Under the pieces are notes generated by a model, which saw only the letters and a list, made by a program, of their open reading frames with translations, ran no database searches and was not told the DNA's origin. Of a stretch of 32,000 nucleotides of DNA, positions 1 to 29,423 are shown piece after piece (position 1 is the stretch's first letter; each line of letters starts with the position of its first letter). Made by a program: the position numbers and the translations under genes. This stretch comes from Erysipelotrichaceae bacterium (GTDB taxonomy: Bacteria; Bacillota_I; Bacilli_A; Erysipelotrichales; Erysipelotrichaceae). The DNA is taken from positions 60,001-92,000 of the forward strand of contig JAUVVC010000004.1 of the NCBI GenBank assembly GCA_030604855.1, in the 5' to 3' direction.

Positions 1-822
1 ATGGCCATCAAACACAAGACTCTTAAAGAAGAAAAGGAAGAAGCCTTGCGTGTCTGGTACGTCGCTCTGACACGAGCTGAGCAGAAGCTGATTATTGTGG
101 ATAAACATCATAAGAATTTGGAAGAAGAGAACTTAGATCTCAAGTTGATACTGGGCTCACGGGGCTATACTTTCTTAACCATGGCTGCGGCTAAGCAACT
201 GGAAGCGGGATTCGAAGTCAAACTAATTTCTCCAGAGACGATTGAAGATCGTTATCATGTTCGTAAGGAAACAATGAATGCCTTTAAGTACGACAAACGT
301 AAAGATGCTTCTCTACTTTTCAAACGTCCTTCAAGTCATGCGCATGTCTATGTCCCTAAGGCTTTAGAGCTCGAAAACTTTAATGATGGTAAGGAGCGTG
401 GGACACGCCTTCATCACTTGATTGAACACTTACCGCTTCAAGGATGGACAAGTGATCTGATCCTTGAGCTTGATCCCACCTGTACACTCGATGAGATCGA
501 AGCTCTGCTGGCCTTCCACAACAGTCCTTGGTATGGTCAGATGAAAACAATGGATGTGTACAAAGAGTTCCCTTTCATTCATCAAGACGGAAATGAAGTC
601 CTCCGTGGTGTCTTAGATATGTTTGCGGTGGATGACCAACAGGTATACTGTGTGGACTTCAAGACGGATCGCCATTTGAATGAGTCCGAATTGATGAAGA
701 TGTATCAATCTCAACTTGAAGCGTATCAAAAGGTGCTTCGTTCGATCTATCCCACGCACGAGCACCATACAGGAGTCTACAGTTTCAAACATCGAAAAAT
801 CATAGAACTTAAAAGCGAGTGA
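1..822 (+). CDS. addA: ATP-dependent helicase/nuclease subunit A (AddA/RexA type), C-terminal fragment; the 5-prime end lies outside the window
   Basis: The ORF is open from base 1. It has the UvrD-type helicase C-terminal motif VWYVALTRAEQKLIIV, followed by a RecB-type PD-(D/E)XK nuclease motif GVLDMFAV...VYCVDFKTD. Confidence 0.8.
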   Translation: MAIKHKTLKEEKEEALRVWYVALTRAEQKLIIVDKHHKNLEEENLDLKLILGSRGYTFLTMAAAKQLEAGFEVKLISPETIEDRYHVRKETMNAFKYDKRKDASLLFKRPSSHAHVYVPKALELENFNDGKERGTRLHHLIEHLPLQGWTSDLILELDPTCTLDEIEALLAFHNSPWYGQMKTMDVYKEFPFIHQDGNEVLRGVLDMFAVDDQQVYCVDFKTDRHLNESELMKMYQSQLEAYQKVLRSIYPTHEHHTGVYSFKHRKIIELKSE

Positions 823-838: not shown

Positions 839-2611
839 TTAGACAAACTGAGCCATATAGAGATGATAATAATGTCCTTTGTTTTGCATGAGTTGAGTAT
901 GCGTTCCCTGTTCAACGACTTCCCCATCGTGAACCACCAGAATCAAATCCGCATTGATGATGGTGCTCAAGCGATGTGCAATGACGAAACAGGTTTTCCC
1001 ATGCATCAACTTTCGGGTTGCGGCTTGAATCCGCTTCTCAGTCAAGGTATCCACATTGGACGTGGCTTCATCAAAGATGACCATGGGTTTATCCGCCAAC
1101 ATGGCTCTGGCAATGGTGATCAACTGACGTTGGCCTTTTGAAATGTTGACACCGTCATCACTGATCAAAGTATCATAGCCGTTCTGCGTACGTTCGATGA
1201 AGTGATGAATATGCACTTCTTTCGCAATCCGGATCACTTCTTCTTTTGATACATGTTCATTACCATAGATCAAATTATCGTAGATCGATCCATAGAACAA
1301 CCATGAATCTTGAAGCACCATTGAAAACATTGAACGTAAGCTGTGTTGATTCATCGTTTTGATATCAACCCCATCCACTTCGATCGTTCCTTCAAGAACT
1401 TCATAGAATCGCATCAAGAGATTGATCAGCGTTGTTTTACCAGCACCGGTTGGGCCTACCACCGCAACCAAAGTTCCCGCTGGTATGTCCAGATTCACAT
1501 GTTTTAGTACAGGACGATGCTTATCATAAGCAAAGTTCACATCCTTAAACTTCACATGGCCTTTGACATCACTTATCGTTTGAGGATCTTCCATGATGTG
1601 TTCAATTGGTTCCTCTAAGACTTTAAAGACACGTTCCGCAGCCGCAAGGGTGGATTGAAGTTCCGCAATCATCGAAGCGGCTTCACTGATCGGACCAGAG
1701 AACTTTCGTGAATACAAGAGGAAAGATGAAATGTTTCCCAGGGTGATCGCTTGCAAGAGAAAGAGAATGGATCCAAACACCGAAATCAAGGTCATGGAGA
1801 TGTTGTTGATAAAGCCGACACTCGGACCCACGATGCTTCCATAGTAATCAGCTTTGTAATACGCTTCCGATGCATCATGATTCTGCGTCTTGAATGTTTC
1901 AAATATCGTATCTTGTGTGGCATAAGCTTTGATGGTTTTAAATCCCGACAGAGTCTCCTCAATGTATCCATTCAACATCCCCAGTTTTCGTGAACGTTCT
2001 CTGAAGAGTGGGCGTGTACGCTTAGTGAGATAACGTGTCGTGAGAATCGACAAGGGAATCGAAATAAAGAATACCGACAGCAATGGCAATGAAATCAAGG
2101 CCATCATCATGAACGCGCCTAACACAACCACAAACGATCCAAACAGTTGAATCAAATCCGATGAAAGTGAGGTGTTGATCGTATCGATGTCATAGGAAAT
2201 ACGACTGAGCAGATCACCGATGGGATGGCGGTCAAAATAACTAACCGGCATGGCCAAAAATTTCTTAAACACATCTTGACGCATCTTTACCACGATTTTC
2301 TGGCTGGTATAGATCATCAAACTGGACAAAACATACATCAGAATTGACGATGCCACATAAACCAAGCTTAAAGTGATCAGAAGTTGTCTCAATGTTGACC
2401 ACAAATCCAAGTCCTCTGGTCCTGATATCAAGTCAATGATCTTTCCGGTATAGAAAGGCCCCAACAACTGCAGACCATTGGCAAATAACGTCAATAGGAT
2501 AGCGATTCCCAATAACCATTTAACTCCTTTGACATACTGAAATAACTTAACAAGTGTTTTGCGAGTATCCTGAGGTTTTTCAATCGTTGAGAATCCGGAA
2601 CGTTTACTCAT
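839..2611 (-). CDS. ABC exporter, fused permease/ATPase subunit (canonical-NBD half of a heterodimer)
   Basis: 590 aa with an N-terminal multi-TM exporter domain. Walker A GPTGAGKTT, deviant signature ISKGQRQL, Walker B VIFDEATS with the catalytic E, H-loop IAHRLS. A GGAGG RBS is present, and the start overlaps the upstream gene's stop by 8 nt. Confidence 0.9.
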   Translation of the reverse strand: MSKRSGFSTIEKPQDTRKTLVKLFQYVKGVKWLLGIAILLTLFANGLQLLGPFYTGKIIDLISGPEDLDLWSTLRQLLITLSLVYVASSILMYVLSSLMIYTSQKIVVKMRQDVFKKFLAMPVSYFDRHPIGDLLSRISYDIDTINTSLSSDLIQLFGSFVVVLGAFMMMALISLPLLSVFFISIPLSILTTRYLTKRTRPLFRERSRKLGMLNGYIEETLSGFKTIKAYATQDTIFETFKTQNHDASEAYYKADYYGSIVGPSVGFINNISMTLISVFGSILFLLQAITLGNISSFLLYSRKFSGPISEAASMIAELQSTLAAAERVFKVLEEPIEHIMEDPQTISDVKGHVKFKDVNFAYDKHRPVLKHVNLDIPAGTLVAVVGPTGAGKTTLINLLMRFYEVLEGTIEVDGVDIKTMNQHSLRSMFSMVLQDSWLFYGSIYDNLIYGNEHVSKEEVIRIAKEVHIHHFIERTQNGYDTLISDDGVNISKGQRQLITIARAMLADKPMVIFDEATSNVDTLTEKRIQAATRKLMHGKTCFVIAHRLSTIINADLILVVHDGEVVEQGTHTQLMQNKGHYYHLYMAQFV

Positions 2612-4316
2612 TTTCAGAACCTCCTAACTGTAAGGCCATCAATTCTTGATAGAGCGGACAAGATTGAACCAATTCTTGATGACTTCCTAAACCGACCACT
2701 CGACCTTCTTCCAATACCAAGATCTGATCCGCATGCAAGACAGTACTGATGCGTTGCGCGATCAGAATTGTCGTCGCCTGGGTGTTTTGTTTGATGGCTT
2801 GTCTTAATTTCGCATCCGTTTGATAATCCAAGGCACTCGACGCATCATCGAGAATGATGATTTCAGGTCGATCCGCTAAGGCGCGTGCGATAAGCATACG
2901 TTGTCGTTGTCCACCGCTCAAGTTCGCTCCTGAACGCAAGATTTTCGCTTCATATTGATCTTGGAGCTGTTCAATGAAAGGTCGTGCTTGGGCCATTTCA
3001 GCAGCTTCTTGAACCATGTTCAACTCCACATCACGACCAAACTGAATGTTCTCTTTGATACTGGTACTGAAAAGCGCGTCTTGTTGGAAGACAACCCCAA
3101 ATTTGCGTCTCAATTCATGCACGTCATAGCTACGGATGTCTTGACCATCGATCCAAATCGAACCTTCATCAATCTCATAGAATCGCAATAAGAGTTGTGC
3201 GATCGTTGATTTACCAGAGCCAGTTGAACCAATGATGCCAAAGGTACTACCTCGCTTGATTTGAAAACTGATGTCTTCCAAGTCCGCCTTAGTTTGATTG
3301 TAAGAGAAGGATACCTGTTTGAATTCAATGATTGACGCAGCTTCCTGTCTTTCCACTTCCACAGTGACAACATCCTCTTTTTCATTCAGAATCATCGCAA
3401 TCCGATCTGAACTGGCATTTGATCGTGAAAACAAAAGGAAAATTCGATTGATGGCTAAGAAAGAATTCAGAATCAGACCAAAGTACGTTAAAAACGCTAA
3501 GATGGAGCCACTTTTACTTAAACCTTGGGTCACACGATACGCTCCAATGCCGAGAATCAAAACCAAGCCCCCATTGAGAATCAAGTTCATCAAAGGATTC
3601 AATGACGCAATCACATAGCCCGCTGTTCTTTCCTTGCGGGACACATCCTCATTGACCCCATCGAACTTAGCTTGTTCATGGTCTTCTTTCGCCAGTGCTT
3701 TGATGATGCGAATGCCTGTGATGTTTTCACGCACGACACGGATCAACTGATCCAACGACGTCTGAAGTCGATCGTAATAAGGAATGCCTTTACGTGATAT
3801 CCATATTATTACCCCGGTAATAATGGGGAGTAAGGCAATCAACACAAAAGCTAGGTAGGTATCAATGAACAACATCATCACGATGCTTCCCATTAATAAG
3901 ATGGGTGCACGAATCCCGATTCTTTGAATGACGTTGAACATGCGATAAACATGATAGGTATCCGTTGTCATGCGTGAGATCAAGGATGGAATGGTGAAAC
4001 GATCAACACTTCGATTGGAAAAGGCCATGATGTGTTGGTAGGCATCATCTCTTAGGTCACGAATCGCATCCGATGAGATCCGCGCCGCCATGCGATTGGC
4101 CACCACATTTCCCAACAACGCCAATAAAGAACTACCCAACATCAAACCCCCATAGAGCAGAACTTTAGGAATGCTTTTGGTCGGAATGATGAAGTCGACC
4201 ATATATGCCAATAACCAAGGTAGAAAAAGTTCCATGACCGTCGCAAAGCTTTTGACACTCAAGCCTTTTATGATCAGTTTCTTATAGGGTCTTAAATAAG
4301 CTAGGATTTTCTTCAT
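2604..4316 (-). CDS. ABC exporter, fused permease/ATPase subunit (degenerate-NBD half of a heterodimer)
   Basis: 570 aa. Walker A GSTGSGKST, canonical signature LSGGQRQR, Walker B IIILDDASS (D replaces the catalytic E), H-loop IAQRIS (Q replaces H). ATGA overlap with the marR stop. Confidence 0.9.
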   Translation of the reverse strand: MKKILAYLRPYKKLIIKGLSVKSFATVMELFLPWLLAYMVDFIIPTKSIPKVLLYGGLMLGSSLLALLGNVVANRMAARISSDAIRDLRDDAYQHIMAFSNRSVDRFTIPSLISRMTTDTYHVYRMFNVIQRIGIRAPILLMGSIVMMLFIDTYLAFVLIALLPIITGVIIWISRKGIPYYDRLQTSLDQLIRVVRENITGIRIIKALAKEDHEQAKFDGVNEDVSRKERTAGYVIASLNPLMNLILNGGLVLILGIGAYRVTQGLSKSGSILAFLTYFGLILNSFLAINRIFLLFSRSNASSDRIAMILNEKEDVVTVEVERQEAASIIEFKQVSFSYNQTKADLEDISFQIKRGSTFGIIGSTGSGKSTIAQLLLRFYEIDEGSIWIDGQDIRSYDVHELRRKFGVVFQQDALFSTSIKENIQFGRDVELNMVQEAAEMAQARPFIEQLQDQYEAKILRSGANLSGGQRQRMLIARALADRPEIIILDDASSALDYQTDAKLRQAIKQNTQATTILIAQRISTVLHADQILVLEEGRVVGLGSHQELVQSCPLYQELMALQLGGSENE

Positions 4317-4750
4317 AGAATATCCTCATGCTCGGCCAAAGATAAGGCTCGCTCTTTCAATCGTTCCAGATATTCCAAGAACTGAACCAAGTCTTCATCA
4401 CTGAAATCTTGAAGGATATAATCTCGTTGCTTATGCAAGATGCGCTTGATTTCATTGGCCAAAACCTTACCCTTATCGCTTGGATAAAGGCGCAAAACTC
4501 GAAGATCCTGTTCATCTTGAACCCGTTCGATATAACCCAACTCACTCAAATGAATCAAACCTCTCGCGACATTGCTTTTATCGATGTGCATGTTTCGTGT
4601 CAACTCTTCCTGTGAGATACCAGGGTGACGTGTGATTTCAAGGAGATAACTGGCTTGGTATCCTCTTAGGTTCATATGCTTGAATGCCTCATTGCGAAAT
4701 AATATATTGGATCGCTCTATGATGCTTATGGTTTTGTTTATCGGTAACAT
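4313..4750 (-). CDS. MarR family transcriptional regulator
   Basis: 145 aa with a winged-helix pattern GISQEELTRNMHIDKSNVARGLIHLSELGYIERVQDEQDLRVLRLYPSDKG. It is the first gene of a translationally coupled three-gene operon with the two ABC genes. Confidence 0.85.
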   Translation of the reverse strand: MLPINKTISIIERSNILFRNEAFKHMNLRGYQASYLLEITRHPGISQEELTRNMHIDKSNVARGLIHLSELGYIERVQDEQDLRVLRLYPSDKGKVLANEIKRILHKQRDYILQDFSDEDLVQFLEYLERLKERALSLAEHEDIL

Positions 4751-5832: not shown

Positions 5833-7191
5833 TCATTTCTTCTCCTTGTATCGCAAACCATATCCCGGCTTATTGACTTGATGTGCTCGTGCAATCGCCA
5901 TATCCGTATCATCCACATTGCGCGTGATGGTAGAGCCTGCTGCCACAACCGCATTCTCACCCACCTCAATTGGCGCAATCAAATTGACATTGCTACCAAT
6001 GAAAGCATTGTTTCCAATAATGGTTTTGAATTTCGACTTCCCATCATAATTGACCGTTACGACACCACAACCAAAGTTGACCTTCTTCCCGATGATGGAA
6101 TCACCAAGATAAGTCAAATGTGCACAACGACTGTCAAAACCCAACTGCGTATTCTTCATCTCAACGAAATTTCCGATACGGTTGTTATCGTCAATGACAC
6201 AATGTTCACGAAGATGCGCGAATGGTCCGACATTGACTTTATTTCTAACGACGGAGTCGGTGATCCGTGATGAATCGATCTTACAGTTCTCACCGATCGT
6301 ACTGTTCACAATGAAGCTGTTGGGTAGAACAAGGGTTCCCTTCCCAATCTTTGTTTTCTTTTCCAAGTACACATTGGGATAGAGTGTCACATCCGCATCC
6401 AAGTGTGTGCTCAAAGAGATGTAGGTCTGATCCGGATTGACCATCGTCACACCTTTGCGCATCCACTTTTGATTGATGGTTTGCTGGATCCAACGACTCG
6501 CCTGTGCCAAATCGACACGGTCATTGACGCCCATGACTTCATTCACATCCACAACGGGGATCGCCTGCATCTTCAAACCATGATTCAATCCGATTTCAAT
6601 CAAATCCGTCAAATAATATTCCTTAGCCGCATTATCATTCTTGATCATCGCCAAGTATTCATGTAAGACCTTATTCTTGACACAATAGATACCCGTATTG
6701 ATCTCTTTGATCAATTTCTGCTCATCTGTACAATCCTTAAATTCCACAATCTTCTCAATTTCACCGTCCGCATTACGCACAATCCGTCCGTAACGTGCCG
6801 GATCATCAAAGATCGCCGTCAAGACCGTCAAATCTGCTTCTTTGTTTACTTCGTAGAGATTTGCCATCGTCTCTGCTTGGATACAAGGTGTATCCCCATA
6901 AAGAATCAAGGAGTCTCCCTCGATCGGAAGTAAGGGAAGACTCTGCATCACCGCATGTCCTGTCCCAAGTTGTTCACTTTGAACCGCATATGCGACGCTA
7001 TCCTTTAAACAAGCTTGGACCAATTCTGCCCCATGTCCAACCACCACAACGGTTTGATCGACATGTATTGTATTCAAATTTGTTAAGACATGTTCAACCA
7101 TGGTTTCACTCAAGATCGTATGCATGACCTTGGGAAGTTCTGATTGCATGCGTGTGCCTTTGCCAGCTGCTAAAACCACTGCAGTTCTCAT
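5833..7191 (-). CDS. glmU: Bifunctional UDP-N-acetylglucosamine pyrophosphorylase / glucosamine-1-phosphate N-acetyltransferase
   Basis: N-terminal motif VLAAGKGTRM and a C-terminal hexapeptide-repeat (left-handed beta-helix) region. I trimmed the start to MRTAVV (ATG at 7191), 8 nt after GGAGG; the track start is a TTG inside the RBS. Confidence 0.95.
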   Translation of the reverse strand: MRTAVVLAAGKGTRMQSELPKVMHTILSETMVEHVLTNLNTIHVDQTVVVVGHGAELVQACLKDSVAYAVQSEQLGTGHAVMQSLPLLPIEGDSLILYGDTPCIQAETMANLYEVNKEADLTVLTAIFDDPARYGRIVRNADGEIEKIVEFKDCTDEQKLIKEINTGIYCVKNKVLHEYLAMIKNDNAAKEYYLTDLIEIGLNHGLKMQAIPVVDVNEVMGVNDRVDLAQASRWIQQTINQKWMRKGVTMVNPDQTYISLSTHLDADVTLYPNVYLEKKTKIGKGTLVLPNSFIVNSTIGENCKIDSSRITDSVVRNKVNVGPFAHLREHCVIDDNNRIGNFVEMKNTQLGFDSRCAHLTYLGDSIIGKKVNFGCGVVTVNYDGKSKFKTIIGNNAFIGSNVNLIAPIEVGENAVVAAGSTITRNVDDTDMAIARAHQVNKPGYGLRYKEKK

Positions 7192-8320: not shown

Positions 8321-9161
8321 ATTTCGTTAAGATTTTGGTTTTACGGACAAAGCGAACCTGCTTACGGAAATGGCGGACACATTGGTCGATCACCTCTTCA
8401 TTTTGACTGAAACCCATGACCACCGAACCACTGCCCGTCATCATACTGACATCACAACCCAGCTCTACTAAACGCTGTTTGAGTTCTTGGATCTCCGGAA
8501 CCAATTCCAAAGCACGTGCCTCGAGACTGTTTCCTATGCTTTGACAGAAAGCTTCATAGTCATTGTTTTCAAGTGTCCTTTGTATCTGTGACACGTCGGG
8601 ATGAACCATGGACGCAAAGTTCAAGCCCTCAAAGGCTTTTTTCGTTGAAACGCCTTTACGGGGTTGAAGCAGGATGATCCACACTTCCAATTGGTTGCTA
8701 AAGAAACTCAATTTCTCCCCAATGCCCTCAACCAAGGCAGGTTTTTCAAACAAGCAGAATGGCACATCCGCCCCAACTTTGAGTGCCAGTTCAATCTTCT
8801 TCTCATCGCTCAATTTCCAATTGAATAATCGATCCAAATAATTAAGTACCGCTGCCCCATCACTGCTTCCTCCACCTAAGCCGGCTTGCGAAGGAATGTG
8901 TTTATAGAGTCGTATACGGAATTGTTCCGTGAATTGAAATTCTTCTCGACAGACTTCAATCATTTTGAGTAAGGTGTTTTTCTCTGGCGCAATGCGAAAA
9001 GGGGGAACACATTCAAAGACCGTTGTGTGATAAGGATGGATTTCAATCAAATCATGAAGTTGAATCGGAACCATGATGCTTTCAAGATCATGGTAGCCAT
9101 CTTCACGACGACGAATGACATTCAAGCCCAGATTGACTTTAGCGTACGCTCGACATTTCAT
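8319..9161 (-). CDS. ispE: 4-diphosphocytidyl-2-C-methyl-D-erythritol kinase
   Basis: N-terminus AYAKVNLGLNVIRRREDGYHDL and GHMP-kinase motif PSQAGLGGGSSDGAAVL. A GGAGA RBS is present. Confidence 0.95.
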   Translation of the reverse strand: MKCRAYAKVNLGLNVIRRREDGYHDLESIMVPIQLHDLIEIHPYHTTVFECVPPFRIAPEKNTLLKMIEVCREEFQFTEQFRIRLYKHIPSQAGLGGGSSDGAAVLNYLDRLFNWKLSDEKKIELALKVGADVPFCLFEKPALVEGIGEKLSFFSNQLEVWIILLQPRKGVSTKKAFEGLNFASMVHPDVSQIQRTLENNDYEAFCQSIGNSLEARALELVPEIQELKQRLVELGCDVSMMTGSGSVVMGFSQNEEVIDQCVRHFRKQVRFVRKTKILTK

Positions 9162-9960
9162 AAATTTGTCTCCATTGGTCCAAGGTCAAGGCTTCGGCAC
9201 GAATGCTTTCGGATACGTTCAATTCTTTGAGAATGGCTTTGATGTTGGATACCTCTTTTAGATTGTTTACCAAGGTTTTCCGACGTTGAACAAAGCCTTT
9301 CTTTACTAGACTGAAGAAGGGCTTAAGGCTCGCTTGATCCACGTCTTTACGAATCAATTGAACCACCGCAGAATCCACATTCGGTGCGGGATGAAAGACA
9401 TTCGGAGGCACCTTCATAACCATCTTGATATCACAAAGAGTCTGCAAGATGATGGAAAGCGCGTTGTAATCCTTGGTGTTCACTTGTGCATTGAAACGAT
9501 CCGCCACTTCACGTTGAACCATGATCGTAATCGTTCGAATGCTGGGCAGTTCCTCAAGGATATGGAAAAGAATGGGTGTGGTGATGTAATACGGTAGATT
9601 CCCCACACAGTGTGTCGCCTGTGTCGCTTCAATTTCCTCAGGTGTTGTGGTTAGAAAGTCTTTATCGATTACGGTCAGATTCGTTTTATCATGAAACTGT
9701 TCATCTAAAACTTTGATACAGTCTTTATCGATCTCATACGCCGTCACATGTTTCGCTATCATAAGCAACTGTTCCGTCAAAGCCCCGATTCCTGGTCCGA
9801 TTTCAATGATGTGTCGATCTTGTGCATCGGATAAGCGTGCGATTTTCTCTACGATCTTGGGATCAATGATAAAATTCTGACCGAATTTCTTCTTGGCCGT
9901 CAAATGGTGTTCCCGAAGGATCTTTATGGTTTGTGCATGGGAGCTTATTGGTTTTTGCAT
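9139..9960 (-). CDS. rsmA: 16S rRNA (adenine1518/1519-N6)-dimethyltransferase
   Basis: Contains KKKFGQNFIID, the SAM motif IIEIGPGIGALT, and GNLPYYITTPI. Confidence 0.95.
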   Translation of the reverse strand: MQKPISSHAQTIKILREHHLTAKKKFGQNFIIDPKIVEKIARLSDAQDRHIIEIGPGIGALTEQLLMIAKHVTAYEIDKDCIKVLDEQFHDKTNLTVIDKDFLTTTPEEIEATQATHCVGNLPYYITTPILFHILEELPSIRTITIMVQREVADRFNAQVNTKDYNALSIILQTLCDIKMVMKVPPNVFHPAPNVDSAVVQLIRKDVDQASLKPFFSLVKKGFVQRRKTLVNNLKEVSNIKAILKELNVSESIRAEALTLDQWRQIYEMSSVR

Positions 9961-10484
9961 GAGATGAGTTTCTTTTCTAGGTCTTCTTTCGTAAGATGTT
10001 TAAACTGACATTGTTTCAAGAAGCTTTTCGCATTACCTTCTTGGATATGGTAGATGTTCGCGAGTTGATTACGCAGTGCTTGGCTTTCAGGGTGACCGCT
10101 TAATTTTAAATCAATCAAATCATTCAGTGTCAGATCCGATGTTTGATCATCGATGGTATACAGGTTCTGAAGGGCTTCAAGAATGTGTTCATTCGATGCA
10201 TGTTCAACCCCGACCTTACGCTTGTCGCGTGCGACCTTTGAAGGTAGCACCGCATGCTTGAGCCCGGGGATCTTCGCATCCAATAAAGCTCTTAAACGCT
10301 TTCCAGGGTTGTCTGGGTCTGTAAATACGATCACGCCTGATGTCATTTGAGCTTCCTTGATCACTTCGATTGTCTTAGCTTTGATGTGTGAACCATTGGT
10401 GATGATCACATTGGCTTCCACAACCTTCAAAATGGCTTGTTTATCATGGTAGCCTTCGACTACGATCATTTCTTTTATCTTCAT
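9945..10484 (-). CDS. rnmV: Ribonuclease M5 (TOPRIM domain)
   Basis: MKIKEMIVVEGYHDK...VFTDPDNPG matches the RnmV N-terminus. I trimmed the start to the ATG at 10484; the track's extension runs through the promoter and terminator. Confidence 0.9.
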   Translation of the reverse strand: MKIKEMIVVEGYHDKQAILKVVEANVIITNGSHIKAKTIEVIKEAQMTSGVIVFTDPDNPGKRLRALLDAKIPGLKHAVLPSKVARDKRKVGVEHASNEHILEALQNLYTIDDQTSDLTLNDLIDLKLSGHPESQALRNQLANIYHIQEGNAKSFLKQCQFKHLTKEDLEKKLISCKNQ

Positions 10485-10491
10485 CGTGCTT

Positions 10492-10500
10492 ATTATACCA
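10492..10500 (-). promoter_or_regulatory. Extended -10 promoter (TGGTATAAT) of rnmV-rsmA-ispE
   Basis: The minus strand reads TGGTATAAT. Only 7 nt (AAGCACG) separate it from the rnmV ATG, and there is no Shine-Dalgarno sequence. Confidence 0.5.
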
Positions 10501-10511
10501 TTCACGACGAT

Positions 10512-10558
10512 AAAAAAAGTACTTCGATACAAACCCTTGGTCTGTATCCTGAAGTACT
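10512..10558 (-). terminator. Rho-independent terminator downstream of the 3D-domain lipoprotein gene
   Basis: The minus strand reads AGTACTTCagGATACA-gaccaagggtt-TGTATCGAAGTACT followed by TTTTTTT. Confidence 0.75.
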
Positions 10559-11399
10559 AACGACACACCCTCTCACCTGAACTATTCTTCGTCCATTTTA
10601 GGAAATTCACCACTGTCACCTTCGTATTTGCCGTACGTTTGTTTGTCACCACGTTTATATTTTTTTCACTTCCGACAAATAAATCCAGTTTATTGGTGGT
10701 GATTGCGCCACCACGATCGACGACGATCGCTTTGAACGCTACCCCTGGTGTTAAGCCCATACCACTAAAGGTATGATTTGAAATCTCTAAAACAGTACAA
10801 TTTGGGAAAGCTTTATCCGCTGCGAGGACATAATAGCCATCGTAGGTGATGCCTTCTTTCCACGTGCCATCCGATTGACGAACACTGGATCCATTCAAAC
10901 GAATGCCGGCTGAAGTTCCTGCCGCCCCATCCAAGCCGATATAACAACCCACACAGTCATAACCGTATTTGGTAATGACACGTGCATTGAAATAAGCGTT
11001 CTTGACGACTTTCGCGCCGTACTGGTAGATGGTTGGTTTCCCTTCGATATACACTTCTGAATCAGGTATGAATTCTTTGGATAGTAGATTGCCTTCACTA
11101 TCATAGGTCGAACGATAGCGAGTTTCTGTGTAGCCGACGCTACCATCACTCACTTTTGAGATGAGCCATGAATAACCTGTTCGCGAGGTATCCATAGGTT
11201 TAAGGACTGTTTTAATTGGTGTCGTATCTAAAGTAGTCTCAACGCTCTCTTCAAACGTAAAAGGCGAAACAATGGACGCGCTCAAGATGGCCGTATCTTC
11301 ACTTTTCTGAAGTACAATCGTCGTGCTCTCCGTTGTTTGTGTACATGCCGTCAGGAAGATCATCACTCCCAACAACCATGCTTTCTTGTTTTTAATCAA
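10557..11399 (-). CDS. YabE-like 3D-domain (RlpA-like double-psi beta-barrel) cell-wall lipoprotein
   Basis: The C-terminal stretch AIVVDRGGAITTNKLDLFV fits the 3D domain, and the gene sits next to rnmV as yabE does in Bacillus. I moved the start to the TTG at 11399 (AAAGGAG RBS 8 nt upstream). This gives the lipoprotein signal MIKNKKAWLLGVMIFLTAC, and the track start at 11450 lies upstream of the predicted promoter's -10 element, which falls inside the extension. Confidence 0.75.
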   Translation of the reverse strand: MIKNKKAWLLGVMIFLTACTQTTESTTIVLQKSEDTAILSASIVSPFTFEESVETTLDTTPIKTVLKPMDTSRTGYSWLISKVSDGSVGYTETRYRSTYDSEGNLLSKEFIPDSEVYIEGKPTIYQYGAKVVKNAYFNARVITKYGYDCVGCYIGLDGAAGTSAGIRLNGSSVRQSDGTWKEGITYDGYYVLAADKAFPNCTVLEISNHTFSGMGLTPGVAFKAIVVDRGGAITTNKLDLFVGSEKNINVVTNKRTANTKVTVVNFLKWTKNSSGERVCR

Positions 11400-11428
11400 T
11401 CGTTTGTCTCCTTTTTGATGACTTAGCG

Positions 11429-11457
11429 ATTTTAGCACATGTTTTTCCATATGGCAA
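11429..11457 (-). promoter_or_regulatory. Sigma-A type promoter of the 3D-domain lipoprotein gene
   Basis: The minus strand has TTGCCA (11452-11457), a 17-nt spacer ending in TG, then TAAAAT (11429-11434). Confidence 0.6.
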
Positions 11458-11580: not shown

Positions 11581-11620
11581 TTGACATTATGTATATAATA
11601 CTTTACATTATGTTTATATT
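11581..11620 (+). promoter_or_regulatory. Promoter plus tandem operator-like repeats of the membrane-protein/XRE/oxidoreductase operon
   Basis: TTGACA (11581-11586), 17 nt, then TACATT (11604-11609). Two 19-bp direct repeats, TTGACATTATGTATATAAT and TTTACATTATGTTTATATT (16/19 identical, 21-bp register), each contain the inverted motif ACATnATGT. Confidence 0.55.
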
Positions 11621-11648
11621 GATAGACATTCTAGAGGAGGAACCGAAG

Positions 11649-12143
11649 ATGACATATCAAACTAAGAAGACCATGATCAGCTTATTGACAAGTCTGATCC
11701 TATTATTCAGCTACTGCATCACTGTTTACAATGACTTTTCTAAGGGTTTGATCTTTGAGAATGATGCGCGTTTTTGGGCAAGAAGAATGCTTTTGTTCAT
11801 TGCGATCGGGGTCGTTTTGAACATCATCTCCTTTATTGTATTTCACATTTTATTGTCTGTAAATGTGTCTGTTAAGGGCAGTACAACAGATAGTAAAGAA
11901 ATCAATCGTAAACTCGAATTGGAAATGATCGAAGATGAAATGGACAAGCTGATTGAGCTCAAAGCACTGCGTGTTGGCTACATCGTTTCCAGTACAGGGT
12001 TCATTCTTAGTCTCATCTTATTTGCATTCAACATCGCCATTGCGATCGTACTAAATATCCTTTTTCTATCATTCTTCGTTGGTGGAATCTTTGAAGGCTT
12101 CAGTAACCTCTTCTTTTATTACAGAGGGATCCGCAATGCCTAA
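11649..12143 (+). CDS. Small 4-TM membrane protein of unknown function
   Basis: 164 aa from MTYQTKK (GAGGAGG RBS). Two hydrophobic helix pairs flank a charged segment, KEINRKLELEMIEDEMDKLIELK. The stop overlaps the downstream XRE gene's start by 8 nt. Confidence 0.7.
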   Translation: MTYQTKKTMISLLTSLILLFSYCITVYNDFSKGLIFENDARFWARRMLLFIAIGVVLNIISFIVFHILLSVNVSVKGSTTDSKEINRKLELEMIEDEMDKLIELKALRVGYIVSSTGFILSLILFAFNIAIAIVLNILFLSFFVGGIFEGFSNLFFYYRGIRNA

Positions 12144-21894: not shown

Positions 21895-22389
21895 TTATGC
21901 GTAAGACAATCCATCCACCTTTTGATATGCCAAACGGGGTGTCCCATCCCCTACAATGATGATTCCGCAATAAACAAAGCCATTCTTTTCAATCAAGTGA
22001 CGCATTGGCGTATTGTCTTGATGGGTGTCGATGCGAAGGTTGGGACGAATGGACCATGAAAAATCAATGATCAATTTGAAGAGACCTTTTTGCGTACCCC
22101 TACTGGCGATGCGATGAAGGGTCGCATAAGGCTCATCATTCAACCATTTCCCATCAATCACCAGATAAGTTGGATCCTCACCCAGAATCAAAGTAAAAAC
22201 AGCTTGAATCGCTTCATCCTCAATAACATATAAAACCTTTTGCTCAATGTCATTATGTATGATTTCTTCACTGGGATAGCCATTTCCCCACTGTGTGAAG
22301 TTTCCTGTTGAACGCATGAATTGACGTGCATCCTCATAAATTTGTTCAATTGATTCCAAATCATTCTTGTTTGCGAGACGAATCTTCAT
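21895..22389 (-). CDS. GNAT family N-acetyltransferase
   Basis: 164 aa with the GNAT size and layout and an acetyl-CoA-loop-like segment RIASRGTQKGLFKLI. An extended -10 TGTTATAAT and a GAGG RBS lie upstream. Confidence 0.75.
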   Translation of the reverse strand: MKIRLANKNDLESIEQIYEDARQFMRSTGNFTQWGNGYPSEEIIHNDIEQKVLYVIEDEAIQAVFTLILGEDPTYLVIDGKWLNDEPYATLHRIASRGTQKGLFKLIIDFSWSIRPNLRIDTHQDNTPMRHLIEKNGFVYCGIIIVGDGTPRLAYQKVDGLSYA

Positions 22390-22434: not shown

Positions 22435-22474
22435 TTGCATTCTGTTTATCACTGTACTATATTTATAGTACAGT
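22435..22474 (+). promoter_or_regulatory. Promoter of the GntR-kinase-ABC operon with an overlapping 24-bp perfect palindromic operator
   Basis: TTGCAT (22435-22440), 17 nt, then TATATT (22458-22463). The palindrome ACTGTACTATA-tt-TATAGTACAGT (22451-22474) has 11-bp perfect arms and is followed by an extra AGTACA half-site. Confidence 0.65.
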
Positions 22475-22493
22475 AGTACACAGGAGGGCTCAC

Positions 22494-22859
22494 ATGATCA
22501 GTTTAAGCTCATTAAGCCGTACACCCATCTATCAACAAATCATTGATCAGATTTTGGCACAGATCGCATGTGGTGCGTTTCAAGCCGATGAACAATTACC
22601 CGGGGTACGAAATCTCGCCCAAGATTTAGGCATCAATCCCAATACCGTCGTTAAAGCCTATGCGGAACTTGAGAACAGTGGATACATCTACAGTCTTCAA
22701 GGCAAGGGTTCTTTCGTTAAGAAACGTGAGGATGATAACAATCATCTTATAACCATCAAACTTGAAGAAGTGAAAAAGGATTTGCAACTGTTGATGCAAT
22801 TGGGTTTACCCATTGATCGAGTCAACAGCTTGGTTCAGGAGGTCTATGGTAATTTATGA
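22494..22859 (+). CDS. GntR family transcriptional regulator, YtrA-like subfamily (short C-terminus)
   Basis: 121 aa from MISLSSL (AGGAGG RBS). Winged helix: PIYQQIIDQI...LPGVRNLAQDLGINPNTVVKAYAELENSGYIYSLQGKGSFV. Only about 50 aa follow the DNA-binding domain. Confidence 0.85.
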   Translation: MISLSSLSRTPIYQQIIDQILAQIACGAFQADEQLPGVRNLAQDLGINPNTVVKAYAELENSGYIYSLQGKGSFVKKREDDNNHLITIKLEEVKKDLQLLMQLGLPIDRVNSLVQEVYGNL

Positions 22860-23524
22860 ACAATTCTTTACCCATCTTAGCCCATGAGCTAAAGACTCCT
22901 ATCGCCACCATCCAAGCCATGATTGAAGTCCTCAATGCACAAGAACATAAATCCATTGAAGAATACGAATACACCATGTTGCAGATCCATAAACACATGC
23001 AACGCATGCAGGACATCATTGAGTTGATCTTGAACGCTCGTGCAAGTTTCAATGAAGATGATGAGATTGATGTGGATGAGATTTTAGGGGATGTCCTGCA
23101 GGATGTCCAAGCTAAAGCCGATGCAAAGAAGATTTCAGTCCAAGTACTGAACACTCTACAGCCTGACTTAAACATCAAAGGCTATCCCATCTTGTTCTAT
23201 CGAGCCTTGTATAATCTGCTTGAGAATGCGATCAAGTACAGTAGTGATCGATCAAAGATTGAAATCGAAGTCAATCAAGACAAATGTCTAAGTATAAACA
23301 TCAAAGACCAAGGCATCGGCATCGATCCCAAAGAACTCTCCAACATCTTCAAACCATTCTACCGCTGCGCAAACGAAGGCATTGAAGGCTCTGGTTTAGG
23401 ACTCTATTTAGTCAAGATGGTGGTCGAGATGCACAATGGTTCAATCGACATTAATAGCACCCCAAAACTGGGAACACACATTCACTTGTGCTTCCCACTT
23501 CAATCCCACAAGGAGGCCTCATGA
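22856..23524 (+). CDS. Soluble histidine-kinase catalytic core (HisKA + HATPase_c) with no input or TM domain
   Basis: 222 aa. H-box LAHELKTPIATI at residues 8-19, N-box NLLENAIKYS, G1 IKDQGIGI, F-box FKPFYR, G2 GSGLGLYLV. No hydrophobic segments. ATGA overlaps at both ends. Confidence 0.8.
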   Translation: MNNSLPILAHELKTPIATIQAMIEVLNAQEHKSIEEYEYTMLQIHKHMQRMQDIIELILNARASFNEDDEIDVDEILGDVLQDVQAKADAKKISVQVLNTLQPDLNIKGYPILFYRALYNLLENAIKYSSDRSKIEIEVNQDKCLSINIKDQGIGIDPKELSNIFKPFYRCANEGIEGSGLGLYLVKMVVEMHNGSIDINSTPKLGTHIHLCFPLQSHKEAS

Positions 23525-24411
23525 TATCACTACAAAACATACACAAACGCTTTGACACCAACATCGTCTTAGAGAAGGTGAATTGGGATATCCCCAAAGC
23601 TTCCATCTATGGCCTGGTTGGACCCAATGGGGCAGGTAAGAGTACTTTACTCAGAATCATTGCGGGCGTTCTAAAACCAGATGAAGGAAATGTGACTGTC
23701 AATGGTGTGGACACCTTTGATAATCCGTCCATCAAGAAACACATCTTGTTCGTATCTGATGATCCTTTTTTCCTCCCTCAAGCCAATATCAAAGAAATGC
23801 GTCAATTCTATGAACTCTTTTATCCAAGTTTCAACGATGCGATGTATCATACTTTATTGAAGAAATTCAATTTGGATGAAAATGCTCGTATCAACGATTT
23901 CTCCAAAGGGATGAAACGTCAGGTCAGCTTGATTCTTGCTTTATCCTGCACACCCGATCTACTCCTTCTGGATGAAGCCTTTGATGGTTTGGATCCGGTC
24001 ATGCGCTTAAGTTTGAAACGCATCATTGCGAACGAACTCTTGAATCGTGAAATGACCGTCATCATCTCTTCCCATAACTTAAGGGAATTGGAAGATATCT
24101 GTGATCGCATCGCCATGCTCAATCAACACCACATTTCAATTCAGGATGAAGTGGAAAGCATTCGTAATCAATATCACAAACTTCAATTGGCTTATACAGA
24201 GAAAATTGATTCATCGCTTCTGACTGATTTGAATCCTTTATACTTTGAACAGCGTGGTAATGTTTATCTTATGGTCATCAAAGGATCGATGGAAGACGTT
24301 CTCCCTAAAATTCAAGCAACACAACCCATCTTGAATGAGGAAATCCCAATCACGATGGAAGAAGTATTCGTCTATGAAATGGAGGCAAATGGTTATGGCC
24401 AATCAATTTAG
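23521..24411 (+). CDS. ABC transporter ATP-binding protein (ABC-2/DrrA-like, with a C-terminal accessory domain)
   Basis: 296 aa from MISLQNI (AAGGAGG RBS). Walker A GPNGAGKST, signature FSKGMKRQ, Walker B LLLLDEAFDGLD, H-loop SSHNL, plus about 85 aa of C-terminal extension. Confidence 0.9.
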   Translation: MISLQNIHKRFDTNIVLEKVNWDIPKASIYGLVGPNGAGKSTLLRIIAGVLKPDEGNVTVNGVDTFDNPSIKKHILFVSDDPFFLPQANIKEMRQFYELFYPSFNDAMYHTLLKKFNLDENARINDFSKGMKRQVSLILALSCTPDLLLLDEAFDGLDPVMRLSLKRIIANELLNREMTVIISSHNLRELEDICDRIAMLNQHHISIQDEVESIRNQYHKLQLAYTEKIDSSLLTDLNPLYFEQRGNVYLMVIKGSMEDVLPKIQATQPILNEEIPITMEEVFVYEMEANGYGQSI

Positions 24412-26656
24412 ACTCAGCAATAATCTGGATTACTTGCGCTTTGTCCTAAAACGCAATCGTCGTTTCATGATTCTGATGACCTCCGCCATGGTGGTTCTCT
24501 ATCCTGTTTTGGTTCTAACGATCTCATTGATCAATCCGCAAGTCAATGTGAATAATCTTCGTCCAGTCGGACAAGTCTTTACCTTGATCCTCTTGATCGT
24601 ATCTGCCTTGACCATCCCGATTCTTACCCTTGGATATATGAACTCCAAGAAACACTTGGATGTCTATCATGCTCTTCCAATCAAACATCGTGATCTTCTA
24701 AGCATCAATATCATCGCAGCATTTGTCTTGATGCTCATTCCCTTCACCATCGCATGGTTCTTGGGTGGCGTCGTCTCTTTATCCCTTGATTTCACACTTA
24801 TGGATTTAGGCATGACCTGGTTGGGCAGCTTGATGATCGTATCCGCCGTCATGTCCATCCTGATCTTCACCTTGATGCATACTGGTACGAGCATCGATGG
24901 TCTACTTTATGGTTTGGTCTTAAACTTTCTCCCCATCTTGACTTATGGCGCGTACATCGCTTTCAGTGCGATCGTTCTCTTAGGCTTCAATGGCGACTAT
25001 ATCGCTCGTTATGTTGGAATCATCTTCCCCATCTGGTCGATCTTTGAGAATGTGTTTGAGATTGAAATCCGGCTTTGGGATCATATCTTGCTCAATGGTT
25101 TGTATTGGTTGATCATTTCGGCAATCCTGCTTGCCTTGAGTCACATCATCTATGCCAAACGTCGCCATGATAAAGCAGAGAGTCCGTTTACCAACCCATA
25201 CTTCTTCCCAGCGGTCAGTGCGGTGGTATCGGTCGTTCTCATTTTCTTGATGTATGCAGGTTTCTATACCCTCAGTGAAGGAAACAATCAGAACTTCTTC
25301 AATCCATTGAATTTCATCTTCCCGTTCTTCTTCACAGCCGTGATCTACCTGGTGATGGATGTCATCTCGCAGCGCAGCTTCAAGTATTTATACAAAGCCA
25401 TGCTTCGGTATGTGTTTATAGCGGTGGTAGGTTTTGGCTTGTTGTTGGGGGGCTTGGCCTCCAAAGGCTTTGGATACATCACACGGATTCCAGATTTGGA
25501 CGATGTGACACAAATCGCCTTCCGTTTCGATGATTATCAAAACTTCGTCTTACCTGTTCAGTTGAACAACAATTATTACATGACCAATCAATCTGATTTC
25601 ATCTTTACCGATGAAAAAGGCATCGCAGCGATCCATGAACTTCATGAGGTCATTCTCAATGAGTACAAGTGGATCAACTACTCCAATCGCAACTATTGGT
25701 CTTACCCAAATGGTTTAGTGAACACCATTGAAGACTCTGCTGGGTATAAGAAGTCTTATGAAGATTTCCCATACAATGCATCCAGCTATGAAGGTTCTAC
25801 AGTCTATACTTCGATCACCTATACTCTTAAGAATGGCTCGACCATCTCTCGTTCCTACAACATTCCGTATGAATGGACACTGTCGATTCAAGATCTGGCT
25901 TACAACCCCGCTGTGATTAGAGCCCATGCCTTGGCCTTATTTGCGGATGTTCGTTACCCTTATCTCAAACAAATATCTTTAACCAATGCTTTCAGTGACG
26001 CCTACGTCAACTTGGATCCCACTTTCTTTGATTTAGAAAGCTTCAGACAGGTTTACACCGCTGACTTCAATCGTTTAGGGGAACTTGGCAATGAAGCCAT
26101 GGTGAGTCCAACGGCAGGCTACGTCAAGTTCAACCAATGTCGTATGGATACACTTACAAGTGACTGTACGGAATCCAAGATTCTCATCTCTGAGAGACAC
26201 ACCGAAACCCTTGCATACCTAAAAACCATGGATCGAGATTTCCCTGCTTTCGGGAGTGGATCAGATTACAAATTCTTATTATTCCTCCCCGATGGGAAAG
26301 ATGATGATTTCACCTTCTACATGCCGATCGGTCAGAATACTTGGATCAATCAATGGGGCAATTATAGTAAGCTGGGTCAATATTCAAGCACCTATGTCGA
26401 ACTCTCCAAAGAACAGTTTGAACTGATCAAAAATTACACAACGAATATTGGCATCCTCAGTGAAGCCAGTTATAGTTTAAGAGTTGGTAAGAAAATAGGA
26501 TCTGCCAGTCAAAGTGATGGACAGTTTAATCAGTATGAGTTCTTTGGCAATGCCCTTGTCTTGCCAGAATACAAAGATGAGGTGGAAGCACTCATCCAAG
26601 ATCTTCCACGCATCATCATCACCGATCCGTATCAGTTCATGAATCTTAAGCAATAA
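24395..26656 (+). CDS. Large ABC-2-type permease-like membrane protein with a roughly 360-aa C-terminal soluble domain of unknown function
   Basis: 753 aa from MANQFRL (GGAGG RBS 9 nt upstream; overlaps the ATPase gene by 17 nt). About 9-10 hydrophobic helices span the first 390 aa or so, followed by a hydrophilic Y/N/F/D-rich domain. From memory it may correspond to the DUF6449 class. Confidence 0.75.
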   Translation: MANQFRLSNNLDYLRFVLKRNRRFMILMTSAMVVLYPVLVLTISLINPQVNVNNLRPVGQVFTLILLIVSALTIPILTLGYMNSKKHLDVYHALPIKHRDLLSINIIAAFVLMLIPFTIAWFLGGVVSLSLDFTLMDLGMTWLGSLMIVSAVMSILIFTLMHTGTSIDGLLYGLVLNFLPILTYGAYIAFSAIVLLGFNGDYIARYVGIIFPIWSIFENVFEIEIRLWDHILLNGLYWLIISAILLALSHIIYAKRRHDKAESPFTNPYFFPAVSAVVSVVLIFLMYAGFYTLSEGNNQNFFNPLNFIFPFFFTAVIYLVMDVISQRSFKYLYKAMLRYVFIAVVGFGLLLGGLASKGFGYITRIPDLDDVTQIAFRFDDYQNFVLPVQLNNNYYMTNQSDFIFTDEKGIAAIHELHEVILNEYKWINYSNRNYWSYPNGLVNTIEDSAGYKKSYEDFPYNASSYEGSTVYTSITYTLKNGSTISRSYNIPYEWTLSIQDLAYNPAVIRAHALALFADVRYPYLKQISLTNAFSDAYVNLDPTFFDLESFRQVYTADFNRLGELGNEAMVSPTAGYVKFNQCRMDTLTSDCTESKILISERHTETLAYLKTMDRDFPAFGSGSDYKFLLFLPDGKDDDFTFYMPIGQNTWINQWGNYSKLGQYSSTYVELSKEQFELIKNYTTNIGILSEASYSLRVGKKIGSASQSDGQFNQYEFFGNALVLPEYKDEVEALIQDLPRIIITDPYQFMNLKQ

Positions 26657-26684
26657 AAAACAAAGCCCTAGAGCTTTGTTTTAT
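26655..26684. terminator. Bidirectional terminator between the convergent permease and glycosylase genes
   Basis: AAAACAAAGC-cctaga-GCTTTGTTTT. Confidence 0.7.
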
Positions 26685-29228: not shown

Positions 29229-29390
29229 AAAAAAGCATCCTCTAAGGACGCTTTCACGTGGTACCACCTTAGTTCACTTTCGTGCACTCTATCCGTAACG
29301 TGGATCAGCGGGATATCCAGCTCCAAGTTCATCTTCCATCCATTCAACCATAAGCTCTCACCAAACGCTTACTCTCTTGAGATTGAAAAC
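29229..29390 (-). promoter_or_regulatory. T-box riboswitch leader (candidate Met specifier AUG) controlling metG
   Basis: Read on the minus strand: stem I elements CUCAAGAGAGUAAGCG...GGUGAGAGC; a specifier-loop context GGAAG-AUG-AACUUGGAG (AUG at 29330-29332); the T-box sequence AACTAAGGTGGTACCACG (29257-29274); and the terminator AAAGCGTCCT-tag-AGGATGCTTTTTT (29229-29254). Confidence 0.85.
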
Positions 29391-29423
29391 ATGTACTCAA
29401 CTCTTCTTTGCTTTTTCAGTCCT

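Follow-up and report, generated by a model that had tools for sequence, protein, structure and literature searches.

We analysed a 32,000-nucleotide stretch of DNA from an Erysipelotrichaceae bacterium (GenBank assembly GCA_030604855.1, contig JAUVVC010000004.1, positions 60,001 to 92,000 of the forward strand), called the window below. It carries a module of four plus-strand genes which encode a YtrA-type GntR repressor, a stand-alone histidine kinase (HK) core, an ATP-binding cassette (ABC) ATPase and a large permease. The locus combines two known things, an operon of the YtrA/ABC-exporter kind and a kinase of the HisKA class. What is new is the kinase core inside such an operon, which points to regulatory rewiring by partial gene duplication. 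The genes and signals of the module are the following:

22435-22463, plus strand: putative sigma-70-type promoter, read from the sequence, with a -35 box TTGCAT (22435-22440), a 17-nt spacer and a -10 box TATATT (22458-22463)
22451-22474, no strand assigned: candidate operator, a perfect 11+11 inverted repeat ACTGTACTATA-tt-TATAGTACAGT over the -10 box and the transcription start region
22494-22859, plus strand: YtrA-type GntR repressor gene, 121 aa, true ATG at 22494
22856-23524, plus strand: stand-alone HK core gene, 222 aa
22883-22885, plus strand: codon of the predicted phospho-acceptor His10, in the motif HELKTP, aligned to QseC, CpxA and HK853
23521-24411, plus strand: ABC ATPase gene, 296 aa, PF00005
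24395-26656, plus strand: permease gene, 753 aa, no Pfam or NCBIfam match
26657-26682, no strand assigned: bidirectional intrinsic terminator, an 11-bp stem followed by a T run, common to the operon and the convergent HhH-GPD gene

Organization and control signals of the operon

The original prediction, made from the letters of this stretch, had described four plus-strand genes placed behind one promoter and palindrome and chained by overlaps. Coordinates and sequence bear this out: the GntR/kinase and kinase/ATPase junctions in the window are both of the ATGA type, and the ATPase and permease genes overlap by 17 nt. The TTGCAT-17-TATATT element would serve as the promoter, and a TTGACA/TTGCAT-17-TATAAT-like layout is found likewise upstream of the GntR gene in related loci. 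The perfect palindrome has a single match in the window and none in 100 shuffles. The window and 43 related loci each contain the operator core, TGTA[CT]TA-N4-8-TA[GA]TACA, exactly once and in every case upstream of GntR, with or without the kinase gene. From what is known of the YtrA family, the repressor would be expected to bind at this palindrome. No internal plus-strand promoter-like site was found between the operator and the kinase gene.

No receiver domain (PF00072) was detected in any open reading frame (ORF) of at least 100 aa in the window, either by a Pfam scan or in the precomputed Pfam list for the identical contig, so that the earlier statement that these 32 kb encode no response regulator (RR) is correct. 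Nor does a receiver domain adjoin the operon in any of 15 kinase-bearing loci. The weak receiver matches obtained among related loci were only to a 333-aa minus-strand ORF, located downstream, in two kinase-less loci. We also considered that the kinase might have a concealed extension at its start or be a full-length protein broken by a frameshift, and discarded this: its ORF has fixed limits (222 aa), and the space ahead of it is taken up by the GntR gene in another frame.

A kinase gene within an ancestral three-gene operon

Forty-six loci from species-representative genomes were fetched and their ORFs were scored with the four window proteins. In 35 loci of this genome scan, GntR is directly followed by the ATPase gene, mostly with an ATGA overlap, and then by the permease gene with a 17-nt overlap; they carry no kinase gene. 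Together with L067 and L068, the closest kinase-less outgroups (permease 49% and 46% identical), which share the synteny of the window (mnmG-VIT1-operon-HhH-GPD-metG), kinase-less operons number 37. As judged from this sequence comparison, the three-gene order GntR-ATPase-permease is ancient and ancestral, and it occupies the same place on the chromosome in these 37 loci of Erysipelotrichaceae and relatives.

The kinase gene was found only in two sister lineages, called W (the window type, 19 clusters, 75-100% identity) and X (the type of loci L013, L014 and L054, 25 clusters). Its length is constant, 221-229 aa in all 44 orthologue clusters. W and X are mutually closest for the flanking and operon markers, with identities of 83% for MnmG, 86% for MetRS, 80% for the ATPase, 79% for GntR and 58% for the permease. 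Examination of gene neighbourhoods, which had been proposed as a check, thus gives a mixed result: most relatives have no kinase, but two diverged sister lineages retain it under selection. In no related locus did we find a full-length kinase or a regulator at the operon position, in keeping with the original prediction. The suspicion that a kinase between a YtrA repressor and the ABC genes is unusual is likewise supported by the 37 related operons without it and by our literature searches, which turned up nothing specific on this architecture or on natural sensor-less kinases in GntR-ABC operons.

The overlaps had in addition been taken as a sign of fixed stoichiometry, an argument that loses its force here. 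They are largely inherited from the three-gene operon, and since the kinase/ATPase overlap is not conserved in relatives (it is replaced by a 9-nt gap in L004 and by gaps of 21-31 nt in L013, L014 and L054), the overlap chain is weak evidence for such a stoichiometry. The GntR/kinase overlap is ATGA in W and 8 nt in X.

In L067, the nearest kinase-less relative, two extra same-strand genes follow the permease gene (8351-11058). Their products, of 175 aa and 727 aa, have no Pfam match, and the 727-aa product could be a second permease-like protein.

The kinase core is intact and under purifying selection

Pfam domains scoring above the gathering thresholds are HisKA at residues 7-59 (PF00512, 7e-9) and HATPase_c at residues 111-216 (PF02518, 1.6e-27), and the protein carries no transmembrane (TM), HAMP, PAS or receiver domain. 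With these two domains only in the kinase, and PF00392 only in the repressor, the description of a kinase without input or membrane domain next to a repressor without receiver proved accurate. Only 9 residues precede the H-box histidine (MNNSLPILAHELKTP). This residue, His10, is invariant in all three kinase alignments (W, X and full-length relatives), as are the H, N, G1, F and G2 boxes and the Thr at His +4 (H-E-x-x-T), which we take to be the residue tied to phosphatase activity in HisKA kinases. The ATP-binding residues are kept (N120/N124, D151xGxG155, F165, G178xGLGL183). The protein therefore shows the features of a HisKA-class (class I) kinase: a dimerization and histidine phosphotransfer (DHp) domain with the H-box His and a catalytic and ATP-binding (CA) domain with the N, G1, F and G2 boxes.

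An AlphaFold2 (AF2) model of the core (pLDDT 77) consists of a DHp hairpin, with helices 4-28 and 34-64, and an alpha/beta CA domain at 70-214. Its top Foldseek matches are HK853, the CusS core and WalK, at probability 1.0, and crystallised cores of equal size exist (QseC 3JZ3, 222 aa; CusS 7ZP0, 217 aa).

Within each lineage, the dN/dS of the kinase gene is 0.05-0.11 at a dS of 0.8-2.1, a range equal to that of the repressor, ATPase and permease genes. Because of these ratios, the invariant catalytic boxes and the canonical predicted fold, we consider the kinase to be functional and not decayed; on the evidence of the alignments, the core is catalytically intact and under purifying selection. 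It is predicted to be a true kinase. Horizontal acquisition was considered and rejected, the GC and GC3 contents of the kinase gene being equal to those of its neighbour genes in both W and X lineages.

Origin of the kinase core

In a profile search with the W and X cores, the best matches directly after the cores themselves form a family of 360-372-aa HKs. In every locus inspected, these lie near secA/prfB in operons of the order RR-HK-HAD, where the RR is of the OmpR type (223 aa). X cores group with this paralogous HK family with 89-97% bootstrap in distance trees and are 50-54% identical to it. One of its members, P0222, is carried on the same 2.0-Mb chromosome (a complete genome) as an X operon, about 87 kb apart. 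For W, an RR-HK-HAD system of the same type (P0454) is found in the assemblies ERZ9284047 and ERZ9284071 at coverage 55.0 and 42.1, and the W-type operon contigs there have coverage 50.1 and 40.2 and the same GC as the P0454 contigs, 0.40. Because of this match in coverage and GC, the paralogous system is assigned to the W lineage as well, and very probably both lineages carry it.

In all of these systems, a HAD-family gene (185 aa) comes after the RR gene and the gene for the 360-372-aa kinase; its start adjoins the kinase stop or overlaps with it (L057 7328-9664; L058-L060, L062, L066, L069-L073). The block lies near genes for a DEAD helicase, cspA, secA and prfB.

The borders of the inserted gene are informative. 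Both W and X kinase genes begin with ATGAAYAAWTC (M-N-N/K-S). At the 3′ end, the W gene has AAGGAG and the ATGA overlap with the ATPase start. In X, the kinase stop carries a relic, ATGATTAACC, a near copy of the ATPase start ATGATTAAT, and a second ribosome-binding site (RBS) and the real start follow 21-31 nt further on (L013 ~7085-7130, L014, L054). This X kinase/ATPase junction looks like a small tandem duplication of the ancestral ATGA-overlap junction. Because the sister lineages share the insertion site, the start and the 3′ junction, we favour a single capture in the common ancestor of W and X, after which the core diverged rapidly and asymmetrically. Two independent captures at the same gene junction, or a later replacement or gene conversion, may instead have taken place. 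If W and X did capture different cores independently at one junction, this would imply strong, repeatable selection for this wiring.

The possibility of a decayed two-component system captured by the operon, raised with the original prediction, is accordingly half right. The core is a captured and truncated derivative of the resident OmpR-type HK family; decay is contradicted by the dN/dS values and the invariant boxes.

A 234-aa short kinase, P0312, was examined as a second natural core and rejected, as it is the C-terminal half of a split ordinary kinase, with a 167-aa N-terminal ORF, beside a regulator (L061 1821-3697). Short HisKA plus HATPase_c matches on small contigs are often such fragments, not natural cores.

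Repressor, ATPase and permease

The 121-aa GntR protein matches PF00392 at 1.1e-13 (residues 14-76) and no other domain; it is composed of a winged helix-turn-helix (HTH) and a short C-terminal two-helix tail. No lineage-specific extra domain, insertion or extension was found across its orthologues in more than 50 loci. The ABC ATPase matches PF00005 at 8.6e-29 and has a C-terminal extra domain of ~75 aa. It is 296 aa long with the same domain set in kinase-bearing and kinase-less loci alike. The best full-length NCBIfam match of the repressor is PmtR (69.6 bits, cut-off 200 bits), and the best matches of the ATPase are PmtA-like (171 bits, cut-off 350 bits) and DrrA-like, both below their cut-offs, with the GldA subfamily also among the best. 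With such scores, the two proteins were not retained as PmtR and PmtA equivalogs.

Eight substitutions in the ATPase are specific to the kinase-bearing lineages, a number within the 5-20 seen in control clades. They include H241Y and L242F (window 24241-24246), situated in the C-terminal extra domain: the His is invariant in 15 of 15 kinase-less ATPases, and a Tyr is present in every kinase-bearing lineage.

In the AF2 model of the permease (pLDDT 80), residues 22-355 form a helical, N-terminal membrane part, and a C-terminal domain of ~390 aa (~365-753) has a mixed alpha/beta fold. The membrane part matches NosY and ABC-2 exporters in Foldseek (target TM-score 0.6-0.7, probability 0.96-1.0), and the C-terminal domain has no Protein Data Bank match in the whole-chain structure search. 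Applied to the loops, the positive-inside rule suggests ~9 TM helices and a C-terminal domain that is probably outside the cell. The large extracytoplasmic domain proposed earlier is therefore plausible, as far as this model and rule allow it to be located. A separate nucleotide-binding domain (PF00005) together with a NosY-like membrane fold places the transporter among the ABC-2/type V exporters. The permease family extends from 93% down to ~21% identity, mainly in Erysipelotrichaceae, with some members in Clostridia.

Comparison with known systems

GntR regulators of the YtrA subfamily are typically autoregulatory and paired with ABC transporters, and the studied examples respond to envelope-active antibiotics or peptides (PMC7828314, PMC6117091); ClnR, for instance, binds LL-37 directly (PMC6117091). 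The window protein has the attributes of this subfamily, namely an N-terminal GntR winged HTH, a very short C-terminal domain (~50 aa) and an ABC operon with a palindrome over the -10 box. As in ytrGABCDEF of Bacillus subtilis, clnRAB of Clostridioides difficile and pmtR-pmtABCD of Staphylococcus aureus, a short GntR gene comes first, followed by the ABC ATPase and the membrane component, and the palindrome lies at the operon's own promoter. In contrast to the present locus, no described operon of this kind includes an HK, and here the membrane component is a single 753-aa permease without Pfam family.

The original prediction had drawn an analogy with Bce-type modules. As in BceRS-BceAB, a kinase without its own sensor is genetically tied to an ABC transporter with a large external domain, and the transporter could supply the signal. 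The components are nevertheless different. Bce modules have an FtsX-type 10-TM permease with a loop domain (TM7-TM8), a two-TM kinase touching the permease, and regulator and kinase genes adjacent to each other, whereas the locus described here has an ABC-2/NosY-like membrane fold with a C-terminal domain, a soluble kinase, no regulator and GntR control. Membership in the Bce family was rejected on these grounds (neither PF02687 nor any other Pfam family in the permease, a soluble 222-aa kinase, no RR in the window); a functional analogy is possible.

In domain content, size (217-258 aa) and predicted fold, the kinase core resembles HK853cp, EnvZc and the QseC 3JZ3 and CusS 7ZP0 cores. Core fragments of this kind are typically constitutively active in autophosphorylation, transfer and phosphatase reactions. 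These laboratory cores are engineered truncations, whereas the present one is a natural gene kept by selection; it starts 9 residues before the His, without the upper signal-receiving part of DHp. Spo0B and ChpT, likewise stand-alone and sensor-less at ~200-225 aa, combine a DHp-like bundle with a CA-like domain. The ATP boxes have disappeared from the latter, whereas in the W and X cores N, G1, F and G2 are intact and invariant, and a phosphotransferase of the Spo0B/ChpT type is excluded for this reason. A canonical two-component system was rejected too, given the absence of an input region ahead of the His and of an adjoining RR.

Kinase output can be set by expression level or by a protein partner, as in the KinA threshold model, NtrB-PII, PhoR-PhoU/PstB and FlgS, which responds to the flagellar export apparatus. 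KinA, NtrB, PhoR and FlgS, however, all keep PAS or other N-terminal domains and have known regulators, and none is known to be embedded in a GntR-ABC operon. Finally, the locus was not retained as a known anti-phage defence system: PADLOC gave generic HK and ABC/AAA matches only (PDC-M43B, 58 bits; mad3, 87 bits) and none for the permease, and the locus is a conserved core-genome site.

Possible role of the kinase core

We tentatively favour, at somewhat less than an even chance, a reading in which derepression of the operon leads to joint synthesis of the pump and of a constitutively active kinase/phosphatase dimer, whose target is an unlinked RR of the OmpR family. In this reading, the locus is an autoregulated YtrA-type repressor/ABC-2 exporter operon of the ClnRAB, PmtR-Pmt and YtrA kind. 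In the W+X ancestor, a DHp+CA core would have been inserted behind the repressor gene and ahead of the ATPase gene. This core, truncated so as to begin 8-9 residues ahead of the phospho-acceptor His, would originate from the same HK family as the resident OmpR-type RR-HK-HAD system; it would have taken over the RBS and the ATGA junction that formerly joined the GntR and ATPase genes. Because the protein has no input domain and no internal promoter-like site was found upstream of its gene, the sole regulated quantity that can be read from the DNA is the amount of kinase, which would be set by the YtrA operator. By analogy, the derepressing signal could be an envelope-active compound or peptide. 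Upon derepression, pump and active dimer would be made together, and the best candidate for the unlinked target is the RR of the paralogous RR-HK-HAD system. The outcome would be a coupling of pump induction to a second regulon.

Several observations weigh against this proposal. The W and X kinases are only 38-39% identical (window 22856-23524 compared to L013 6437-7105), whereas their neighbours are 58-86% identical. Such a gap points to very rapid change for a time, or to a replacement, on one of the branches, and is not what simple retention of one conserved partner predicts. The identity of the W core to X, to the paralogue family and to other HAMP kinases of the Erysipelotrichaceae is about the same (35-43%), a result that held in an exhaustive search of 1.8 billion representatives. 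Distance trees computed under several gamma corrections never place it with X; X joins the paralogues and W is unplaced on a long branch, so that the single capture rests on synteny and junctions and not on the kinase tree. At His +7, +8, +11, +12 and +15, positions known to determine HK-RR specificity, the paralogue has S, I, T, H and V; X shows a mild shift (T/A, I/V, A/T, Q, V) and W a strong one (A, T, A, M, V). This drift could mean insulation from the paralogous regulator. No YtrA operator motif occurs in the loci with the paralogous RR-HK-HAD system. Lastly, the location of the kinase gene exactly between those for repressor and ATPase, together with its translational coupling, would fit a physical complex with the transporter as well.

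Such a complex is the basis of another explanation, unlikely in our estimation and still to be taken seriously. The soluble core would dock on the ATPase dimer, possibly on its C-terminal domain, or on permease loops, and the transporter would be the sensor, with output to an unlinked RR. The kinase/phosphatase balance would then track the transport cycle, as a soluble analogue of flux sensing by BceAB-BceS or of PstB/PhoU-PhoR. A protein partner is the obvious source of regulation for a kinase without its own input; its gene directly precedes that of the ATPase, with translational coupling between the two in most W loci, and the permease offers a ~390-aa domain that is probably external. Sensing of the BceS type via a transporter is established (PMC7828314), homology of BceS (8G3A) to the core can be detected, and H241Y/L242F occurs in the ATPase of kinase-bearing lineages only. 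However, BceS touches BceB via TM helices and PhoR uses a PAS domain, and the core has neither. The kinase/ATPase overlap is lost in L004 and in all X loci, the length and domain set of the ATPase are the same with or without the kinase, and its eight lineage-specific substitutions stay within the control range. A conserved docking interface would not predict 38% identity between W and X for the kinase against 80% for the ATPase. Gene order and the H241Y/L242F change are the sole positive indications of the docking of the kinase on the transporter that had been suggested earlier. A more specific version, to which we give a still smaller share of belief, is that the core is a cytoplasmic reporter bound to the ATPase dimer or its C-terminal domain, with the ATP-hydrolysis cycle toggling it between kinase and phosphatase, a membrane-free counterpart of BceS flux sensing. 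If true, this would constitute a three-layer circuit (repressor, transporter-as-sensor, kinase) reaching a distant regulator.

Descent of the core from the HK family of the RR-HK-HAD system, and coexistence of both genes in the same genomes, also suit a role as modulator of that parent system, which we hold to be improbable. The core would alter the system through DHp heterodimers with the full-length HK or as a phosphatase or sink for its RR, and induction of the pump operon would reset it. The H-E-x-x-T motif for phosphatase activity is intact, and isolated DHp-CA cores are generally known to keep this activity. On the other hand, the DHp identity to the paralogue is only ~40-50%, paralogous kinases as a rule evolve away from heterodimers, and a pure phosphatase or sequestering protein would not need the ATP-binding boxes which are kept here under selection. 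A feedback loop without any RR, in which the kinase phosphorylates or binds the YtrA-type repressor or the ATPase of its own operon, appears very unlikely. It would fit with the overlap between the kinase and repressor genes (ATGA in W, 8 nt in X) and with the absence of an RR nearby, and an orphan kinase controlling a non-receiver transcription factor has reportedly been described in Myxococcus in a recent preprint, going by its title. Yet in practically every case studied, HisKA kinases pass their phosphate to an aspartate of a receiver. The repressor lacks such a domain and, compared with the repressors of kinase-less operons, shows no lineage-specific insertion or extension; operator and repressor are also conserved regardless of the kinase. 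That the gene is a dead relic, a piece of a kinase which persists in the operon without function, could be argued from a product shorter than every full-length relative, from its absence in most orthologous operons and from its high divergence between W and X. The selection analysis effectively refutes this idea: the ORF is intact at 221-229 aa in 44 clusters, dN/dS is 0.05-0.11 at dS 0.8-2.1, motifs are invariant and the predicted fold is confident.

Two-component kinases are usually seen as sensors; in W and X, a natural gene has been cut to the bare catalytic core and kept by selection under a one-component repressor. Should our preferred reading be right, in which the dose of kinase is controlled through the YtrA operator, it would show an easy way in which evolution can connect a one-component switch to a two-component regulon, in which a resident kinase core is duplicated and dropped behind the promoter of another regulator. 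The product would be connector-like, yet itself a kinase. Should the core be coupled to the transporter instead, transporter-as-sensor signalling would be extended to soluble kinases. With four genes and a soluble protein of 222 aa, the system is small, and natural controls are available in the sister operons that have no kinase. Its importance is limited by a narrow range, two lineages of uncultured Erysipelotrichaceae.

Other features of the window

A 164-aa ORF without Pfam match lies between VIT1 and the operon (21895-22389, minus strand). The content of this slot differs between close relatives: L008 has a 159-aa ORF, L004 an AAA_14/DUF4143 gene and a 138-aa ORF, and L013 ~2 kb of other sequence. 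At 839-4750 on the minus strand, a MarR-family regulator gene is followed by two genes for fused ABC exporters (ABC_membrane + ABC_tran, 570 and 590 aa), apparently an ordinary operon for a heterodimeric exporter under MarR control. A Pfam scan at E <= 1e-4 gave no match for three ORFs of 184-297 aa (1-822, plus strand; 10557-11450, minus strand; 11589-12143, plus strand). The methionyl-tRNA synthetase gene is preceded by an ordinary T-box leader (29241-29417, minus strand), which at 97 bits exceeds the gathering score.

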